Shown here in pieces: positions 8,658-17,519 of a DNA stretch of 32,000 nucleotides. How positions within the stretch are numbered: position 1 is the stretch's first letter; each line of letters opens with the position of its first letter. The stretch is from contig JAWOFX010000148.1 in assembly GCA_046497275.1 (NCBI GenBank), positions 2,525 through 34,524 on the forward strand. The letters are read 5' to 3'. This DNA comes from Promethearchaeia archaeon (GTDB taxonomy: Archaea; Asgardarchaeota; Lokiarchaeia; Sigyniarchaeales; SOKP01). A program made the translations under genes and the position numbers. The notes beneath the pieces were generated by a model. The model made no database searches. It worked only from the letters and a program-made list of their open reading frames with translations, and had not been told where the DNA came from.

Positions 8658-9509
8658 ATGGTTCAAGTATTTCTCATAAACCCTGACGGAACAACTTCGG
8701 AGGTAAAAACAGAAGGATCTATAAAAGATGTGCTCGAAAATGATCAAGCTTATGTGATCGTATCCGACGATGTGCGAAAAGTGTATTTATGGAAAGGAAT
8801 AAAAAGCAATGTTCGCTCAAAATTTATTGGAGCCAAACGAAGTCAAGAAATTAGAGGACAAGTTGGTATGCATTATAGCGTCGTGCCGTTAGATCAGAAC
8901 GAAGAAGATGAAGATCCTGATTTTCTTGGGTTAATTGGTGGAAGGACAACTAATGGTATTGCAAAAGAGATTTCAGCGGATGATATTGGGGGTGCCTCTA
9001 AAGGAAGCGGAGGACATCCATTACGAGAAAAATCTGAATTTGCTCCTCCCGAACCTGCATCAGATATGAATATTGCGGGAAGTAAAACAAGAAGTAAGCA
9101 AAATAGTGGTCCTCTTTATAAAGGGGAGGAATCTTTAGCTGCTTTTACCACTGATGAGCAAAAAATCAATTTTGAGCAAATTATGCAAAAACTTGAAGAA
9201 ATAAAAATGCCAAATGGCTATGAAAGAGAATTATTAATTATTGGAAATCATGCATATGCTTTGGTAGAGAAAAAACAATCATTTCTAGGAAAAACTACTA
9301 GCGAAAAAATACTTGAAAAAGTTGGAACGATACCAGAAGGAATTTTCTTTGCGGAGAGTTATAGCCCCCGTATATTATCAGAGGGTGGTAATATCGTAGC
9401 AATAGAATTTTTAAAAAAAACAGGAAATACCAAAGCTAAAGTAGAAGAGCAAGATAAAAGAAGTATGTTGAAGAACCAAATTAAATCGCAACTAGAGAAC
9501 AAAAAATAA
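8658..9509 (+). CDS. Gelsolin-domain protein (one gelsolin repeat, linker, C-terminal X domain; 1DGelX-like)
   Basis: N-terminal L.NDQAYVIV....KVYLWKG..S.VRSKFIGA matches a gelsolin/villin repeat. It is followed by a Gly/Ser/acidic linker and a compact alpha/beta domain of about 85 aa. Confidence 0.78.
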   Translation: MVQVFLINPDGTTSEVKTEGSIKDVLENDQAYVIVSDDVRKVYLWKGIKSNVRSKFIGAKRSQEIRGQVGMHYSVVPLDQNEEDEDPDFLGLIGGRTTNGIAKEISADDIGGASKGSGGHPLREKSEFAPPEPASDMNIAGSKTRSKQNSGPLYKGEESLAAFTTDEQKINFEQIMQKLEEIKMPNGYERELLIIGNHAYALVEKKQSFLGKTTSEKILEKVGTIPEGIFFAESYSPRILSEGGNIVAIEFLKKTGNTKAKVEEQDKRSMLKNQIKSQLENKK

Positions 9510-9585: not shown

Positions 9586-9978
9586 ATGAGCGATTTAACT
9601 CCTGAGGAAGCAAAGAGTTTGTCAAACTTTTTGGGAAATATTACGGAACATTCAGAACTAGAAGCCTTAGCTTTAATAACTCGTGAAGGTCTTCGATTAG
9701 CTTTTTCTAGCGTACCTGGATATAATGTTGATCCCGATTTATTTTCAAGTCTAAGTGCTGTAGTAGTACAAAGTGGCACTGATGCGATTTCTACATTAGG
9801 TTACCATAATATGCTCGAGGTCATTTTACGTGGAGAGGATGCATTTATCATTCTCTCAGATGCTGGAAGATTCTTTTTAATGGGTGCATGTAGAAAAATT
9901 GAAGACCTCGGAAAAATAGTCTCAATTTTTAGATACTACTCTGGTGAAATCAGAAAACGATATCCACGAAAAGAATAA
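9586..9978 (+). CDS. Roadblock/LC7 domain protein
   Basis: 130 aa with the helix - ALALITREGL - D.DLFSSLSA helix - three strands - LGKI helix pattern. Confidence 0.88.
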   Translation: MSDLTPEEAKSLSNFLGNITEHSELEALALITREGLRLAFSSVPGYNVDPDLFSSLSAVVVQSGTDAISTLGYHNMLEVILRGEDAFIILSDAGRFFLMGACRKIEDLGKIVSIFRYYSGEIRKRYPRKE

Positions 9979-10168
9979 AATTCTCTTTTTTCACACAAAA
10001 TATGAAGTAAATATATTTATATTCGTTTTTGCTATTTTTTTTATAAAGAGTTAAAATTTAACCCAAATTGAATTCTTACATTTAGGTAAATATTATAGAT
10101 TTTAATATTGGGAAAAATAAAATAATTTATTAATCATTTAAAATAAATCATTAAAAAATCTATTAAAG

Positions 10169-12322
10169 ATGTCAAAAGAAATAAAAATTTTCGTGGATCA
10201 AAAACAAGATATTTCCAATACAGTTATAATATCTCCAGAAAATGCAAGAAAATTAGAAGTTTCAAATGGACAAAATGTAGAGGTTTATAATCCAGATAAC
10301 GGACAAACCGTGAATGCAATGGTGCAAGTTTCTGAAAATGTATTAGATTTTGCGGGTAAATTTTCAAAAGATATTTTACAGAATGTTAATTATTCTGGTG
10401 TTGAATTAATTGTGCGTTCCCAAGGTACGGGGACATCTCAACCCGCATCTCAACCAGCTCCAACACAAGCTACAAGTCCTCCACCTCGAGATGCTGGAGG
10501 TACCTTTACACCTCCGCCAAAACTCAAACGCCCAGAAGTCTCACCAAAACCACCTCCTCCTCCCGCACCTCGTCAAACAACTTCAAGTCCTAGTGAAGTT
10601 CCAAAACCTCCTCAATCAGCTCCTACTCCCCCCTCAGATATTCCATCTCAATCCCCACGTCCTCCATCTGTAGTTTCGTACCAACCACCCGGAGGATCCC
10701 GACCTCCTTCTCCTATCTCTTCAGAACAGTCTTTTCCACAGGAATCATCAATGCCACAGCCAGAGCCAGAACCCTTTCCGAATAGAATTGATCCAAATAT
10801 GTTAGCACAACAAAAAAATGGAATTGTCGTTCAACCTGTCGTGTCCGCTAAGATAGAAGGAGGGAGGATTCAATTAAGCTCCAATAATTTACAAAGACTT
10901 GGTCTGGGGCAAGGAATGCTTGTTGCGTGGGAAGATCCTCTTACACGCTCCAATGGTTCAGCTAGAATAGATGTTGCTGCAATAAGTGATGCTCAAATTA
11001 AAATTAGTCAAGACACTAAAGAAGATACAAATATTCAATCAGATCAAATCGTTATATACTCTACAGAACCACCCATCCAAAAAGCTGAAAGCTTGATATT
11101 AGAAGTAGAGTCCCGTGCTGGATTAGAAGGATATGCATTAGTAAGTCCTAGAACTCAACACACTTTATCTCTTCAAAATGATGATGTAATCGCTTTTGAA
11201 GATGATTTAACAGGCGCGATGGGAGCGGGAAAAGTGAGAATCTCTGAGAGAGTCAATGATAATATCATTGTTATTGACAGTGAAATATTAGAAGCATCCG
11301 GAATAGGCAGTTTTGAAGTAACTGTGTCAAAAAATCAAAGACAAATTATTCCTTTACAGAGTGTTTCTTTGGGTATTTCCCCCATCTCAGGGGAAAATAT
11401 GTGGGAAATCGTGAGTACTGCTCGACAAAATATAGGGCAACTTAAGAGTTGGCTTTCTAAATATATAATTTTTAAAGGGATTAAACTTAGATGGAAAGCC
11501 GTTAACATAGCATGTTCCATTCTTAGTTGCGTACCAGATTTAACTGGTGATGTATTAGCTCAAATAACTCCCAATAGCGCATTGACCTTGGCTCCCCAAG
11601 GATTAATACCATTTAATGCAATTCTTATCATCGATATTAGTCGTTCAATGATGGCACGAGATGTCCTTGTGACAAACATAGCCCCAGCTATAGAGGGTAT
11701 CAAAGCTGCGATGGAAAGTAGAGAAATTCAAGAGTTTCTGAAGAAATTTAAAGACGGAGTAAATATCCCACGGCGAATATCTGCTGCATTTGCCGCAGTT
11801 CTATTTTTAAGTGAAAAAGTAGGGAGGGGATTTGGTGAAAAAGTCTCTGTAATTCGATTCGCTGATGAATCTCAAATTCTCCCATTTGGAGGGAGCTTCT
11901 ATATGGATTCTGCCAGTGGTAAGAAAGGTATACTTGAAGATGCCGCTCGTTTGATTGTTGATAGGATTGGAAATGCATATGGTCAAGCCACGAATATGGG
12001 CAGTGCAATGGTCAAAGCAAAAGCGGTCTTGGATGAGTTCAATGAAATGAATCCTAACCAACCGACTATGATAGTATTGCTTACTGATGGCGTACCCACT
12101 GATGGCGACGCTTTCTTTAATACGATACAGCTTTTCGCAGAAAACCCCAACGTAGTGATCTATATAGTTGGTCTTGGAAACCCAGATGATGAATTGATGA
12201 ATAGAGCCGCTCAATTATGCGGTGGAGAGTATTTCAAACCAGATGATGCTGGAGAACTATTAGTTTGGTACTCTAAAAGAGCACGCGACCTCTCTGTAAA
12301 ACTGAAAGCACATAAACACTAA
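10169..12322 (+). CDS. vWA-domain protein with three N-terminal Cdc48-N/double-psi-barrel-like repeats and a proline-rich linker
   Basis: C-terminal vWA with a complete MIDAS (IDISRS at about aa 489-493, TNMG, LLTDG). Three internal repeats of pattern I..S......L.L..G..V...(N/D)P....G.A.V......D..I.I. A Pro/Ser/Gln-rich segment spans about aa 85-205. Confidence 0.82.
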   Translation: MSKEIKIFVDQKQDISNTVIISPENARKLEVSNGQNVEVYNPDNGQTVNAMVQVSENVLDFAGKFSKDILQNVNYSGVELIVRSQGTGTSQPASQPAPTQATSPPPRDAGGTFTPPPKLKRPEVSPKPPPPPAPRQTTSSPSEVPKPPQSAPTPPSDIPSQSPRPPSVVSYQPPGGSRPPSPISSEQSFPQESSMPQPEPEPFPNRIDPNMLAQQKNGIVVQPVVSAKIEGGRIQLSSNNLQRLGLGQGMLVAWEDPLTRSNGSARIDVAAISDAQIKISQDTKEDTNIQSDQIVIYSTEPPIQKAESLILEVESRAGLEGYALVSPRTQHTLSLQNDDVIAFEDDLTGAMGAGKVRISERVNDNIIVIDSEILEASGIGSFEVTVSKNQRQIIPLQSVSLGISPISGENMWEIVSTARQNIGQLKSWLSKYIIFKGIKLRWKAVNIACSILSCVPDLTGDVLAQITPNSALTLAPQGLIPFNAILIIDISRSMMARDVLVTNIAPAIEGIKAAMESREIQEFLKKFKDGVNIPRRISAAFAAVLFLSEKVGRGFGEKVSVIRFADESQILPFGGSFYMDSASGKKGILEDAARLIVDRIGNAYGQATNMGSAMVKAKAVLDEFNEMNPNQPTMIVLLTDGVPTDGDAFFNTIQLFAENPNVVIYIVGLGNPDDELMNRAAQLCGGEYFKPDDAGELLVWYSKRARDLSVKLKAHKH

Positions 12323-12530
12323 AATATTTTTATGTGTAAGGCTAATGTAGTTTTAGGAAAAATATAGGCTTTGATTAAAAGGGAAGGCATATAAAGAATA
12401 GCTCTATTTTTTTCCTTTTTCATATTTTAGTTGTTAGAACCTTAAATTTCTTTAAAAGACATATAGATTTATATTAGTCTTTTTCATTAAATAAAATAAT
12501 AATAATTTAATCCCATTTTTGACCCATAGG

Positions 12531-12932
12531 ATGAAAGAAGTAAAGATAGTTTCGTTAGATGATCGCGGGAGAATAGTGATCCCACAAATTATTCGAGAGA
12601 GTTTAGGTTTAACCACAGACTCTCAAGTTATGATGGTTGCGGACAGTGAGACGAAAGAAATAAAGATTACACCAGTTGGATTAGATGAAGACAGAAAACC
12701 AATAAAATTACGAATTACTATGGAAGATGCTCCTGGAGCTTTAGCCAAGATTGCGATAGCTTTTGGAAAATTAGGAATTTCTTTGATGTATGGTGAATCT
12801 GTTGTTATAGAAAAGGATAAAAAGGCGATCTGGACCGTTATTAGTCCCACACCCAATATACCATTAGAAGAGCTGGAAAAAAAGCTTAAAGTTGAAGGTG
12901 ATGCTCTCAATGTGGAGTTTGTACCTCTTTAG
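12531..12932 (+). CDS. AbrB/MazE/SpoVT-family DNA-binding protein fused to an ACT domain
   Basis: LDDRGRIVIPQ.IRE.LGL followed by MEDAPGALAKIA..FG..GI (ACT). ATG at 12531 is preferred over TTG at 12519. Confidence 0.88.
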   Translation: MKEVKIVSLDDRGRIVIPQIIRESLGLTTDSQVMMVADSETKEIKITPVGLDEDRKPIKLRITMEDAPGALAKIAIAFGKLGISLMYGESVVIEKDKKAIWTVISPTPNIPLEELEKKLKVEGDALNVEFVPL

Positions 12933-13101: not shown

Positions 13102-13719
13102 ATGGCAAAAAAGAAATCTAAGCAAGACAAAGAAGAAGAAACATTAGATAACGCTTTAAAATCAGCAAAAAAAACAGAAAATGATCTCCAGAATTTAATT
13201 GAAGTCCTACAAATGGGGAAAGGATTTTATAAAAAGAAAGAAAAACAACCAGAAGAAGAAGTAGTTGTGATTCAACCACAATTATCTCATGAAAAGAAAG
13301 AAGAAAAAAAGCCATCTTCAGTTAAAGAAGAACCAAGTTTTATTAAGGAAAAAGGAGGTAAAATTAAAGGAGAGGATATTTATTTAAAATTAGGAGAGTT
13401 CTTTGAGAACCTATTTGAGAGTTATAATGAAAGATATAATGAGTGGGAAAATTCCATTTCTGCTTTATTGTCAATTTTACGAAAAATGAGAAAAATAACA
13501 AAGAAAAACACAGAATCATTAACACATGAAATCAATAATGCATATGAAAAGATTTTAAAAAATTTAGACCAATTTAAATTAAAACGAGATGAGATCGAAA
13601 AAATTGCCGAAGTTGATGTCCAAGGGATGTCTCGGGAATTTAAAAAAGTTTTAGGCTTATTAGAACTCCAGATCAAAGAGTATCAATTAAAAAGAATCAC
13701 AGATGAGATGTTTCATTAA
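13102..13719 (+). CDS. Hypothetical protein: charged disordered N-half and coiled-coil/helical C-half
   Basis: 205-aa ORF, K/E-rich; heptad-like pattern from about aa 90 to 205. Confidence 0.78.
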   Translation: MAKKKSKQDKEEETLDNALKSAKKTENDLQNLIEVLQMGKGFYKKKEKQPEEEVVVIQPQLSHEKKEEKKPSSVKEEPSFIKEKGGKIKGEDIYLKLGEFFENLFESYNERYNEWENSISALLSILRKMRKITKKNTESLTHEINNAYEKILKNLDQFKLKRDEIEKIAEVDVQGMSREFKKVLGLLELQIKEYQLKRITDEMFH

Positions 13720-13773
13720 ATTTTTTGATTCAGGTTTAATCCATTAAGAATAATAAAATCGATTTTTATCAAA

Positions 13774-14943
13774 ATGTCGGCTGAAGATACTAGATATTTA
13801 AGACCAATCATAATTGATTTCGGGTCAAGCATGTTTAGACTGGGTTGGGCGGGGGATGATTTTCCAGAAACTCTTAGCCCAAGTATCTATGTTGATATTT
13901 CAGATTATATTTTTAACTCTGATGTTATAAATGGTTTGGAAGAGATATTTATAGGGGAAGGAGATCAAGATTATCTTTTTGGGGGAGAGGCTTTAAAATA
14001 TCAAAATATATTAAAAATTCATGAATTTATAAAAGAAGAAAATTACAACATTTTGGAAAAATATTTTCTATTTCATTATCAGAAATTAAATATTCCTGAA
14101 AAATATCATTTTATGCAACCAGCTATTATTCTCAGCCCTTTTAACATAACGGATATGGTTAAAGCAAAATTACAACATATCTTTTTTGAGAAATTTCAAT
14201 TTCCTTTTTTATTATTTCTTCCCGCTGATAAAGCGATCTTGTCTACCTTAAGGAAATCTGATGGAGTAATCGTGAATATGGGAGAAAATAGTACTTATAT
14301 ATCTTCAATTTATCATGGTTTTACCAATATAATGGCTAGAGATGTTTTTCCAATCGCCGGTGAAGAATTAACAAATTATTTCTTGAACATGATTTTAAAG
14401 GGAAGAGGTTCAAGCAGAAATTTCTATTTAGATTTTTGGCTTGCTAAGGAAATCAAGGAAAAAATGTCTCTATGTGTACAAAATCCAAAAAAAGAAAGAG
14501 AACGTATAAAAGAGGGCTTAACAAAATATGATAGAGTCGTAAAATTGCCAGATAATTCACAATTAAAAATAAATTCTGAACGATTTATGATAGCAGAACC
14601 CCTTTTTGACCCTAAGGTTGTTCATATCGATTATATATCACTTTCAGAAGTTATAGCGAAGATAGTAAAGTTTTGGGATCGGGAAAATTGGGAACATCTG
14701 ATATCTAATATCGTACTTTCTGGAGGGGGTAGTTTGATTCCAGGTTTAAAGGATAGACTGCAATCAGATTTAAAGAATTATTTTTCTGATAAATTGAAAG
14801 ATAAGATAAAGGTATTAGCTCCTTCAGGCAGAGATAATATGAGTTGGATCGGGGCGAGTATCTTATTTGGTCTAGATAAATTAGAGGGATGGATTAGAAA
14901 CCCGAAACTAGAGAAGGAAAAAAGTGAGGAGAGTGAGAATTAG
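13774..14943 (+). CDS. Actin-related protein (divergent Asgard Arp)
   Basis: Actin-fold motifs IIIDFGSSMFRLGWAGDDFP, FGGEA, EKFQFP, IAGEELT, EIKEK, LPD, ERF..AEPLF.P, NIVLSGGGSLIPG...RL and SWIGASIL. Confidence 0.93.
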   Translation: MSAEDTRYLRPIIIDFGSSMFRLGWAGDDFPETLSPSIYVDISDYIFNSDVINGLEEIFIGEGDQDYLFGGEALKYQNILKIHEFIKEENYNILEKYFLFHYQKLNIPEKYHFMQPAIILSPFNITDMVKAKLQHIFFEKFQFPFLLFLPADKAILSTLRKSDGVIVNMGENSTYISSIYHGFTNIMARDVFPIAGEELTNYFLNMILKGRGSSRNFYLDFWLAKEIKEKMSLCVQNPKKERERIKEGLTKYDRVVKLPDNSQLKINSERFMIAEPLFDPKVVHIDYISLSEVIAKIVKFWDRENWEHLISNIVLSGGGSLIPGLKDRLQSDLKNYFSDKLKDKIKVLAPSGRDNMSWIGASILFGLDKLEGWIRNPKLEKEKSEESEN

Positions 14944-14945
14944 AG

Positions 14946-17519
14946 ATGTCTGTCGATGTTGAGAAAAAAAAAAGGTTTTTGAGTGAATTTCAAGACCGTG
15001 TAATCCAAGCACGGAGATTACTTCAATCAGGAAATCATCATTGGGCTTCTAAATTAATCTTAGATTTATATTTTGATATTGAAACGAAAGAATGGCTTAA
15101 TGCTCAAAAAAAGCATCAGCTTATTTTAGTTCTCTCAAATTCCTTTTGGATCTATATTAATTCTCTTAAAAAAAGCAATAAAGAAGATATAGATTTGATA
15201 AGATACATTGATGCTCATAAACGATTTTTTTCATTTCTTACAAAATTAGAAGATTTCCATCTCTTTGAAAAGTTTGCTACAAATTTGATTCATTCTTTCA
15301 TTAAAATGGAAGATCTTTCTATTGAAGGAATAACACAATTCATTAATTCTTTCTCAATAAAAGTGATTGAGGAAAAAGATTATTTAAAATTAATCGAGCT
15401 TCAAATTTTATTAATGTTTTTAAGAAAATCAGTTATCCCTACGGATTATTTTCGAACTGCGATGGAATATCTCGGAAGAATAATCTACAAATTAGAACCA
15501 AGTAAAAGGGCACTCTTTCTCTATATAATTTTGGAAAATGTTAATATAAAGTTCAATTTAATTGAACATTCTGAAGAATTCATTAATATTATGAATAAAA
15601 TCTTAGTAAATCGAATACCTAATTATCTAAGAGAATATTTTAGTAATTTAAGCAGAATTAAAATAAATAAAGGAACTTTTAATTCAATTAAGAATGATCT
15701 TATAGATTTGATTCATTATTTGAATAATATTGGTGAGGCTTCATGGATTATTATTATTATACGGATATTATTTGATAAGGTAAAAAAGTATGAGTCATTG
15801 GGTGACGCAATTACAGTAACACGAGAATTTGTAGAATATTCTATTGATCGAAACAATTTTCAGGTTGCTTTTGAAATTTATAATTTTTTAGAAGATTTAT
15901 TTTTAATGCAATCTGATTTAGGCTATGATAACGTTACTATTGAACTTTGGGCGGAAGCATGCAAACGATTCGTTACTATGAAAGAAAAAAAATATTTATT
16001 ACAATCGATAGAAAAGCTAACTAATCATTTAAGCACTCCTCAAAAACCGCCTCAAATTTTCCATTATTTTTATACTTGCAACTATCTCTGGAAATTTAAA
16101 AGCATGTTTTTTTCATTAGAGAGACGAGATTTTTGGAACATGATCTTCTACCGCGCTTTATATGATCAAGATGATTTGGAACTAGCTAAAAAGATAATCC
16201 CATATTTAGGAAAGCGAATACGACCTCTTTTAGAGAACTTAGAAGAATTACATAAGCAAACTAAGGAATTAAAAAATGAGATCTATTTTTTAGAAGACAA
16301 AAAGGAACATTCTTTTTATCAACAAGAATTTGAGATTAAAAATATCATTATTAGAATAAAATCCTCGGGGGAAATGTCTTATCGAATTCTCTCATTAGCA
16401 AATGAAATAATTGAGGGAAAAATAAAAAATGAATATTGGAACGATTTACACGTTCTTGATATTTACAATGATTTATTTTCAGATAAAAAAGAAAAAGAAT
16501 TTAATTTTAACCTTCAAGAATTCGGTACTATTCTCTTTCTTTTATTACCAAAATTGATTCGAGATTTTTTTACGCAATTTCAAATTAAAAGTTTGGATTA
16601 CATACCTCAAATATACTTTATCCTGAATCATATGTCAATTCCATTTGAATTAATCTATGATAGTAATTTTTTCTTGTTAAAATATTCGAGTGGTTATAAT
16701 ATTGGTGAACCATCAATAGAAGGTTATAAATTTTCTCCAGATAAATATGAATCTTCGATCGAAAATGCTTCTGATGGATCTTATAAAGTGTTAATAATTG
16801 ATTCAATTAATGCGTTAGGACCTAAAATTTGGAATGAAGAAAAAAAATCAAAAGAGATTTTGTTTCCATTTCCATCGGGAGCAAATGAACTTAATTTTAT
16901 AACCCAATTTCTTAATGAGAGAAGTGAGGTTGAAAGTATGGAGATTCTTACTGGTAGAGAAAGTACACGTGAATCTATTCTTAATAAAATCGGTTCTGGT
17001 ACTCATCATTTAATTTATATCGTAGGAAATATTTTCTTTTCTGAATTAAATCCACAAAATTCCTATTTCATTACCAACGATGATAATATTGTTAAATTTA
17101 CAGAGATTTTTGATATGTTAAAGAAAAATAACAGAATTAAACCACTTCTATTTTTTAACACACAACTTTTTGATAATGAAGGGAATCATCTAAAAGAAGA
17201 ATTAACAAGTTTTGGTGAGATTATTTCCCAATTTAGATTTAATGATATAAATGGAATTATGAGTAGAAATTATCCTATTTTTAATGACGAAACAAAACAA
17301 ATAATAACAAATTTTTTCTCCAATTTGTTTGAAAACAAGAGCTTAGGTATATCCCTTTTAGATGCCAGACAAAAAGTCATAGCTGAAAGGACCACGAAAC
17401 TAATCCAAGAGCAAATTTCAAAATTTGATAAAATTGAAAAAGATCAACATATCAATATTGAAAATAGTCAAGCGATTTCTAGTTTTCTACTTTTTGGGGA
17501 GCCTTGGAAGAAATTATAA
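14946..17519 (+). CDS. Alpha-solenoid (TPR-like) protein with a C-terminal CHAT (caspase-fold) domain, predicted inactive
   Basis: About 440 aa of helical repeats. The C-terminal region follows the CHAT pattern: FG..LF.LL, IPFELI, T...I..., YPI.....FF..L....SLG..L..AR, F.LFGEP. The HxxGH motif reads YIVGN and the L(S/N)AC motif reads FFNTQ. Confidence 0.75.
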   Translation: MSVDVEKKKRFLSEFQDRVIQARRLLQSGNHHWASKLILDLYFDIETKEWLNAQKKHQLILVLSNSFWIYINSLKKSNKEDIDLIRYIDAHKRFFSFLTKLEDFHLFEKFATNLIHSFIKMEDLSIEGITQFINSFSIKVIEEKDYLKLIELQILLMFLRKSVIPTDYFRTAMEYLGRIIYKLEPSKRALFLYIILENVNIKFNLIEHSEEFINIMNKILVNRIPNYLREYFSNLSRIKINKGTFNSIKNDLIDLIHYLNNIGEASWIIIIIRILFDKVKKYESLGDAITVTREFVEYSIDRNNFQVAFEIYNFLEDLFLMQSDLGYDNVTIELWAEACKRFVTMKEKKYLLQSIEKLTNHLSTPQKPPQIFHYFYTCNYLWKFKSMFFSLERRDFWNMIFYRALYDQDDLELAKKIIPYLGKRIRPLLENLEELHKQTKELKNEIYFLEDKKEHSFYQQEFEIKNIIIRIKSSGEMSYRILSLANEIIEGKIKNEYWNDLHVLDIYNDLFSDKKEKEFNFNLQEFGTILFLLLPKLIRDFFTQFQIKSLDYIPQIYFILNHMSIPFELIYDSNFFLLKYSSGYNIGEPSIEGYKFSPDKYESSIENASDGSYKVLIIDSINALGPKIWNEEKKSKEILFPFPSGANELNFITQFLNERSEVESMEILTGRESTRESILNKIGSGTHHLIYIVGNIFFSELNPQNSYFITNDDNIVKFTEIFDMLKKNNRIKPLLFFNTQLFDNEGNHLKEELTSFGEIISQFRFNDINGIMSRNYPIFNDETKQIITNFFSNLFENKSLGISLLDARQKVIAERTTKLIQEQISKFDKIEKDQHINIENSQAISSFLLFGEPWKKL

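Follow-up and report, generated by a model that had tools for sequence, protein, structure and literature searches.

A gene encoding a 717-residue protein (P0001; 10169..12322, plus strand) was analysed in a window of 32,000 nucleotides of Promethearchaeia archaeon DNA (GenBank assembly GCA_046497275.1, contig JAWOFX010000148.1, positions 2,525 to 34,524). The product is genuine and is conserved in Loki-type Asgard archaea; it contains three Cdc48-type barrels, a proline-rich tether and a metal-binding von Willebrand factor A (vWA) domain, and no ATPase. It is the lokiarchaeial long form of an Asgard Cdc48N-vWA family. The conserved unit of the family is formed by the last two domains, and a core of about 430 residues, composed of a Cdc48-type N domain and the vWA domain, spans the Asgard classes. 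The most likely working partners of this core are an amidohydrolase-like protein and a GCS2-like protein, and the chances are about even that the protein acts as a non-catalytic docking subunit (adaptor or scaffold) of an Asgard module of a GCS2-type carboxylate-amine ligase, dependent on ATP, and an Amidohydro_2-fold metal hydrolase.

The open frame encodes three related double-psi beta-barrels, a proline-rich spacer and a canonical vWA domain with an intact metal-ion-dependent adhesion site (MIDAS), all described here on the plus strand. Barrel 1 (residues 1-87; 10169..10429) is of the double-psi beta-barrel type, with a predicted local distance difference test score (pLDDT) of 86-96 and the strand (b) and helix (a) order b-b-a-b-b-b-a-b. 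It is followed by the disordered tether (residues 88-204; 10430..10780), in which pLDDT is below 50. Barrel 2 (residues 205-300; 10781..11068) has a double-psi beta-barrel form and is placed after a short helix, and barrel 3 (residues 301-392; 11069..11344) serves as Nn subdomain in a complete N domain of the Cdc48 type. The Nc subdomain, a beta-clam of b-a-a-b-b-b order (residues 393-480; 11345..11608), ends in ITPNSALTL...PQGLI, with ITPNSALTL at residues 466-474. The vWA domain (residues 481-717; 11609..12319) contains an insertion of about 40 residues (approximately residues 494-535) after the DxSxS loop.

An AlphaFold2 model was built on an alignment of 92 sequences. The barrels in this model comprise residues 4-84, 219-298 and 308-388, each with a pLDDT above 90 and the same b-b-a-b-b-b-a-b order, a disordered stretch covers residues 88-200, and a b-a-a-b-b-b unit at residues 398-476 precedes the vWA domain. 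Profile-profile comparison with hhalign showed that the barrels are mutually homologous, with E values of 5e-6 (barrels 2 and 3), 4e-4 (1 and 3) and 1e-3 (1 and 2). No relation between residues 393-480 and the three barrels was found by profile-profile comparison. Residues 3-63 of barrel 1 have weak Pfam matches to the double-psi-barrel families Molydop_binding (1e-5), CDC48_N (3e-3) and IML1_N (0.11), and only the C-terminal vWA domain is matched above the Pfam threshold (VWA, 36.7 bits; VWA_2, 32.2 bits). The spacer of 117 residues is predicted to be disordered and consists of 33% proline, compared with 3.8% in the remaining protein. Its composition is kept among homologues and its sequence is not.

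The MIDAS motif, read directly from the sequence, consists of D489-I-S491-R-S493 (11633..11647), T608 (11990-11992) and D640 (12086-12088), so that DxSxS, T and D are all present on a vWA fold. The D, S and D positions are invariant across the long and short forms of the family, where S491 and T608 reach a conservation of 90% or more. In the 92-sequence alignment the protein is highly conserved from residue 203 onwards, and the vWA part has a mean column identity of 90%. Pattern and Pfam searches of the 717 residues detected neither a Walker A motif nor an AAA domain; the C-terminal domain is vWA, and the AAA+ domain or domains that follow the N domain in the Cdc48/p97/VAT family are absent. 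Pattern searches also found none of the SHP, VIM, VBM, UIM (ubiquitin-interacting) or HbYX motifs.

Barrel 3 and the beta-clam (residues 306-480) superpose on complete Cdc48-type N domains, both in Foldseek and in a Foldseek-independent VIA search with the model of residues 203-480. The two subdomains were aligned to the N domains of PEX1, CDC48A, NSF, Sec18, VAT and UFD1 over 154-164 residues. At the level of the fold, the segment is an N domain of the Cdc48/NSF/PEX1 type, in which the Nn double-psi barrel and the Nc beta-clam packed on it are both present. Similarity in sequence is marginal. A profile of the N domain matched VAT-N best among solved structures (E 3.5e-3) and single-copy DEPDC5 at E 0.4, and a sequence-profile search of residues 203-480 against the PDB returned only chance matches at E 0.3, all to GFP. 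A first-pass annotation of this DNA had described three similar repeats of about 80 residues, a proline-rich spacer after the first, a segment ending in ITPNSALTL and a vWA domain with an intact MIDAS, had noted the absence of an AAA+ domain, and had read repeat 3 plus the following segment as a complete Cdc48 N domain. Each of these observations was borne out, the internal repeats being related beyond chance, and the structural half of the interpretation was confirmed by the predicted model. A further use of ATPase-less N domains was encountered in a representative search: the 667-residue protein P0257 has three complete N domains of Cdc48 type in tandem (CDC48_N x3 and CDC48_2 x3, E 2e-68) and no AAA+ module.

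More than 400 homologues of 656-759 residues, 61-94% identical to the protein, were identified by a word-indexed search. Those long-form homologues to which a source gives a name are called 'hypothetical protein' or 'VWA domain-containing protein', and a second word-indexed search with a diverse core alignment again returned the close long forms alone. Residues 203-480 (barrel 2 and the N domain) were matched in 244 of the 400 genomes of the phylum that were searched, with identities of 62-88% within the source family (query excluded), 45-59% within the order and 43-55% within the class. In other classes the match is confined to the N-domain part and falls in open frames of about 430-490 residues. 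Genes from these classes encode 423-487 residues that align to residues 311-716 at 26-41% identity, which corresponds to the N domain and the vWA domain with the MIDAS kept. Outside the source class, neither the proline tether nor the two extra barrels were observed. From 1.84 billion representatives, a profile hidden Markov model of the N domain recovered 118 clusters at the 50% identity level, and at E <=1e-3 no protein of Cdc48 or DEPDC5 length was among them. The family is small, and all of its members with a source name come from Asgard archaea.

The amidohydrolase-like and GCS2-like genes are linked to the core by adjacency, fusion and co-occurrence. In one other Asgard family, of which 41 genomes were sampled, the core and a gene encoding an Amidohydro_2-like protein of about 500 residues are both found in the same 33 genomes and both missing from the same 8. 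The hydrolase gene lies directly upstream of the core gene on the same strand in 29 of the 33 carriers, and the pairing recurs in two further Asgard families and on a contig labelled Thorarchaeota. Many genomes of the first of these families also encode a paralogue of about 880-920 residues in which an amidohydrolase-like part is fused to a divergent N+vWA part; it lies about 4 kilobases (kb) from the split pair, on the opposite strand. Fused paralogues of this kind were located at L032:9667-12390 (minus strand), L020:10287-12828 (plus strand) and L021:3993-6482 (minus strand), and the same fusion of amidohydrolase-like, N and vWA parts was found in P0224 of Jordarchaeia. Another protein, P0253, has a faint precomputed GCS2 match, and its C-terminal region is 33% identical over 464 residues to the GCS2-like protein of locus L033 (tblastn E 2e-52); judged by sequence, P0253 looks like a fusion of N, vWA and GCS2 parts. 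GCS2-like genes also occur near the core gene in other loci. The L033 locus itself (L033:1-15233), a single metagenomic contig, contains at least four vWA-type paralogues of the family together with genes for a 1046-residue GCS2 protein, a transglutaminase-core protein and a membrane zinc-ribbon protein.

The same genes accompany the protein in the source order: among 46 genomes, the core was detected in 45 and the hydrolase in 42. Two genomes of the order (G143 and G138) contain one co-directional cluster encoding YjeF, a gelsolin-like protein, Roadblock, the three-barrel vWA protein, a 705-residue helical protein, the GCS2-like protein and the amidohydrolase-like protein. The vWA and hydrolase genes are 5-6 kb apart in six genomes of sister family f3, and 9-51 kb apart in those source-family genomes that have both on one contig. 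The source genome contains the core and both enzyme genes of the module, with the vWA gene on contig C180 and the ligase and hydrolase genes on contig C90. The cluster on C90 (L069:5297-12110) is co-directional and encodes a 576-residue helical-repeat protein, a 568-residue GCS2-like ligase, a 515-residue Amidohydro_2-like protein, a 245-residue coiled-coil protein and a 154-residue Roadblock protein. The last of these also matches MAPKK1_Int (LAMTOR3/MP1 type) and is a second Roadblock gene tied to the module. A PDB search with the two linked enzymes gave weak matches to YbdK for the ligase and none for the hydrolase.

Searches of the three genomes of genus g18 (G135, G136 and G137) yielded no amidohydrolase-like gene. 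The syntenic vWA gene of this genus follows the YjeF, gelsolin-like and Roadblock genes (L022:7681-9936, minus strand, in G137), and its product is 20-24% identical to the source protein, compared with 41-52% for the products of the neighbouring genes. The first MIDAS serine of the g18 protein is replaced by threonine (DLTRS). This divergence fits a loss of constraint after loss of the partner. The ligase and the hydrolase are regarded as the likely partners of the core because of the repeated adjacency, the repeated fusion, the matching presence and absence and the case of g18, and the docking-subunit reading is therefore based on linkage, fusion and co-occurrence taken together.

Several points weigh against this assignment. 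The co-loss in g18 is a single evolutionary event, and the co-occurrence counts come from related, non-independent genomes. In the source genome the vWA gene is not adjacent to the ligase and hydrolase genes, and its conserved immediate neighbours encode the gelsolin-like and Roadblock proteins. The Pfam matches of the two enzymes in the source genome are weak, with 21.3 bits for the ligase (cut-off 21) and 18.9 bits for the hydrolase (cut-off 26.4).

The protein has no catalytic domain and combines two protein-docking devices, the cleft of the Cdc48-type N domain and the carboxylate-binding MIDAS. As a docking subunit, it would bind its partners physically: the MIDAS metal would capture a partner or substrate by an acidic side chain or a free carboxylate, and the N-domain cleft would hold a second partner, a peptide or a beta-grasp fold. 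The core would then bring enzyme and target together, or would read an amide mark written by the ligase and erased by the hydrolase. In the source class, the two added barrels, one of them carried on the proline-rich tether of about 115 residues, would supply extra binding sites and reach. The module may write and erase an amide mark. It may mark proteins, as a writer-eraser-reader system loosely comparable to pupylation, or make a small molecule.

A bolder and distinctly doubtful version of the docking reading is that Cdc48N-vWA is the reader or docking subunit of an undescribed, Asgard-specific writer-eraser-reader system for a protein amide mark, in which the GCS2-fold ligase writes and the amidohydrolase-fold enzyme erases. 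Ubiquitination and pupylation would then have a third counterpart among the kinds of protein tagging, and the core could also be the stock from which the scaffold formed by the N-terminal domain (NTD) and the SABA domain of eukaryotic DEPDC5/Iml1 arose.

The tight, roughly one-to-one pairing with an amidohydrolase-fold protein, the repeated fusion and the conserved MIDAS would also suit a maturation or activation factor for a metal-dependent hydrolase, comparable to the MIDAS-vWA adaptors NorD, CbbO, CoxE and ViaA, whose targets are metalloenzymes. Known adaptors of this kind depend on an AAA+ partner of the MoxR type. No MoxR-type gene was detected among the annotated neighbours of the family members, where several loci are partly annotated and no genome-wide MoxR search was made. 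A maturation factor would also leave the Cdc48-type N domain and the fusion to a ubiquitin-like domain unexplained, and this role is considered very unlikely.

A link between the core and ubiquitin was seen in the Sigynarchaeota orthologue only. The Sigynarchaeota-type clusters P0184 and P0200 consist of the core with a C-terminal ubiquitin-family domain (for P0200, 25.8 bits against a cut-off of 25.4). The P0184 gene (L031:7001-8698, plus strand) adjoins a divergent operon encoding ubiquitin, ThiF (E1), UQ_con (E2) and JAB (L031:2360-5546, minus strand). The domain fused in P0184 shares 49% identity with the ubiquitin encoded in this operon and keeps the 'STAGT' C-terminal tail motif of the latter. 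A 349-residue coiled-coil gene lies directly upstream of the Sigynarchaeota orthologue. The source genome encodes an 84-residue ubiquitin-like protein that ends in ...QAGG plus one residue (L038:1447-1701, plus strand, contig C168); its sequence identity is 90-98% within the family and 73-89% within the order. A separate E2 gene is also present, and both genes lie away from the vWA locus.

These genes are the grounds for regarding the protein as an adaptor of the ubiquitin system, which as a Ufd1-Rpn10 hybrid would read ubiquitin-like tags and pass substrates to Cdc48, PAN or the proteasome. The first-pass annotation had likewise proposed an adaptor that delivers substrates to an AAA+ or proteasome machine. 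No proteasome gene was seen in any neighbourhood of a family member, and no AAA+ match was found among the neighbours with Pfam annotation or scanned, several of the loci being only partly annotated. All five motifs searched for in the protein (SHP, VIM, VBM, UIM and HbYX) are absent, and the tie to ubiquitin occurs in a single lineage. A complex prediction for the N+vWA core with magnesium and the source genome's own ubiquitin-like protein scored 0.00 in two runs, a value that gives no verdict and was used neither for nor against the adaptor. The proposed adaptor function thus found no direct support, although the structural part of the same interpretation stood. The partners to which conserved linkage points are the GCS2-type ligase and the amidohydrolase-fold protein, with the ubiquitin tie confined to Sigynarchaeota, and a ubiquitin adaptor is judged unlikely.

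Two genes precede the vWA gene in the source locus and in all other examined genomes of the order. The first encodes a 283-residue gelsolin-like protein of the 1DGelX type (8658..9509, plus strand), which has a weak Pfam match to Gelsolin (E 0.16) and Asgard gelsolin-like proteins as its nearest Atlas clusters (score 0.94), and which is syntenic across the order. The second encodes a 130-residue Roadblock/LC7 protein (9586..9978, plus strand; Pfam Robl_LC7, 2e-5). In all genomes of the order in which the upstream flank was inspected, the Roadblock gene lies immediately upstream of the vWA gene, and this linkage is restricted to the source order. Directly downstream is a gene for a protein with an AbrB/SpoVT-type barrel and an ACT domain (12519-12932, plus strand), which is syntenic in L001 and L002 and not in L003. 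The swapped-hairpin barrel of AbrB and the double-psi barrel are evolutionary cousins. Further downstream in the source family of genomes (13102-17519, plus strand) come genes for a coiled-coil protein, an actin-family protein and an 857-residue protein with a weak CHAT match. In sister families of the order, the position of this set is occupied by the helical, GCS2 and amidohydrolase genes.

The gelsolin-like gene two genes upstream, the actin-family gene three genes downstream in the source family and the proline content of the tether (33%) would suit a factor of the actin cytoskeleton, whose tether would recruit profilin-actin in the manner of formins, Ena/VASP or WASP. The actin relative, however, is replaced downstream by the helical-GCS2-amidohydrolase set in the sister families, and the core family of other classes has neither the tether nor gelsolin or actin neighbours. 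The tether varies from 56 to 157 residues among homologues, and its alignment consensus contains scattered P-x-P positions and no conserved polyproline run; the source copy has one PPPPP run at residue 128 and no further run of four or more prolines. In addition, Loki profilins reportedly do not bind polyproline, a finding said to have been made by Akil and Robinson in 2018. A cytoskeletal role is very unlikely on this evidence.

Contigs from RNA libraries that match the vWA gene at >=99% were found in four runs on salt-lake samples from two studies, the longest piece covering 10309-12206. The gelsolin-like and Roadblock genes are likewise covered by such contigs. These matches are consistent with transcription of the vWA gene, and carry-over of DNA is possible. 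The contigs at 10046-12385 start at 10046 in run X8, about 120 nucleotides 5' of the ATG, and extend to about 60 nucleotides past the stop codon. No RNA contig bridges the vWA gene to its neighbours, a weak hint of a monocistronic transcript from contigs that cannot define transcript ends.

Asgard archaea are the closest known relatives of eukaryotes. In the present family, the adaptor-binding domain of Cdc48 and NSF occurs with no ATPase and is joined to a metal-dependent adhesion domain. Its members are inherited together with a metal hydrolase and an ATP-dependent amide ligase, and a tie to a ubiquitin operon exists in one lineage. Literature on Asgard archaea with vWA, Cdc48, double-psi, GCS2 or amidohydrolase was searched, and no description of the protein or the module was found. 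If a protein mark is written and erased by the module, a new tagging system would have existed in the lineage ancestral to eukaryotic ubiquitin signalling. If not, the analysis still provides concrete, testable partners for a conserved Asgard protein that has no assigned function.

Several known systems share one or both domains of the core. The N domains of Cdc48/p97, VAT, NSF/Sec18 and PEX1/PEX6 and the UT3 domain of UFD1 resemble residues 306-480, whereas in the present protein a vWA domain follows in place of an AAA+ ring and two additional stand-alone barrels precede the N domain. Sequence similarity to these N domains is marginal, VAT-N being the best match. Ufd1 combines its UT3 domain with SHP boxes and an Npl4-binding segment, a combination that was not found here, where an SHP motif is lacking. 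Rpn10 combines a vWA domain with ubiquitin-interacting motifs, which are likewise absent. ArnB/VWA2 of Sulfolobus, p44 and p34 of TFIIH, Rpn10 and the trunk of Sec23/24 are vWA proteins that do not contain a Cdc48-type N domain. The present protein differs from intracellular MIDAS-type vWA proteins by the insertion of about 40 residues after the DxSxS loop, and from the ArnB and Rpn10 types in having no ArnA-type partner with FHA domain and zinc ribbon and no UIM.

The trunk of Sec23 has a vWA fold. The NTD of DEPDC5 resembles the N domain of NSF, and its SABA domain resembles a Sec23 domain (review PMC8534245). A Sec23-like domain thus comes after an NSF-N-like one in DEPDC5 and no ATPase intervenes (PMC8534245). 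DEPDC5/Iml1, a scaffold of eukaryotic nutrient signalling, is the sole described protein found with a comparable arrangement. The core might be the archaeal equivalent, and perhaps the forerunner, of the scaffold that the NTD and SABA form in DEPDC5/Iml1 of GATOR1/SEACIT, and would act with Roadblock/longin platforms in small-GTPase signalling. In Foldseek, the full model ranks Iml1 and DEPDC5 chains at positions 2-5 with about 420-446 aligned columns, but p97 N-D1 chains score equally. In VIA, the top matches of the full model were taken up by vWA proteins and the two-domain match to DEPDC5 was not among them, an outcome that speaks neither for nor against it. The sequence signal is not significant: the N-domain profile matches DEPDC5 weakly and VAT-N better, and the IML1-type Pfam match is that of IML1_N to barrel 1 alone. 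The Roadblock gene that is always directly upstream in the order, together with the LAMTOR3/MP1-type Roadblock gene after the ligase and hydrolase genes of C90, would suit such a scaffold, whereas the linkage to Roadblock does not extend beyond the source order. DEPDC5 is a eukaryotic protein of about 1600 residues, compared with 430-760 residues for the Cdc48N-vWA proteins, and no protein of its length was recovered with the N-domain profile. The MIDAS is intact in the present protein, which ends with the vWA domain and has none of the SHEN, DEP and C-terminal domains of DEPDC5. GATOR1 parts were sought in Asgard archaea by Liu et al. (bioRxiv 10.1101/2020.10.19.343400); a passage of that preprint describes NPRL2-like proteins and names no DEPDC5 homologue. 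DEPDC5/Iml1 is the best architectural analogy to the core; the evidence for common descent is weak, and a DEPDC5-like scaffold is thought quite unlikely.

For the module as a whole, the nearest comparison is with pupylation (PafA, Dop and Mpa) and with the YbdK/GCS2 ligases. No Pup-like tag, proteasome gene or Mpa-type ATPase was seen in the neighbourhoods, and the hydrolase is of the Amidohydro_2 TIM-barrel type and not a paralogue of Dop. The GCS2/YbdK ligases belong to the same fold class as PafA and Dop. The ligase linked to the Cdc48N-vWA core is GCS2/YbdK-like, and both cases combine a ligase and a hydrolase with a binding protein that is non-catalytic.

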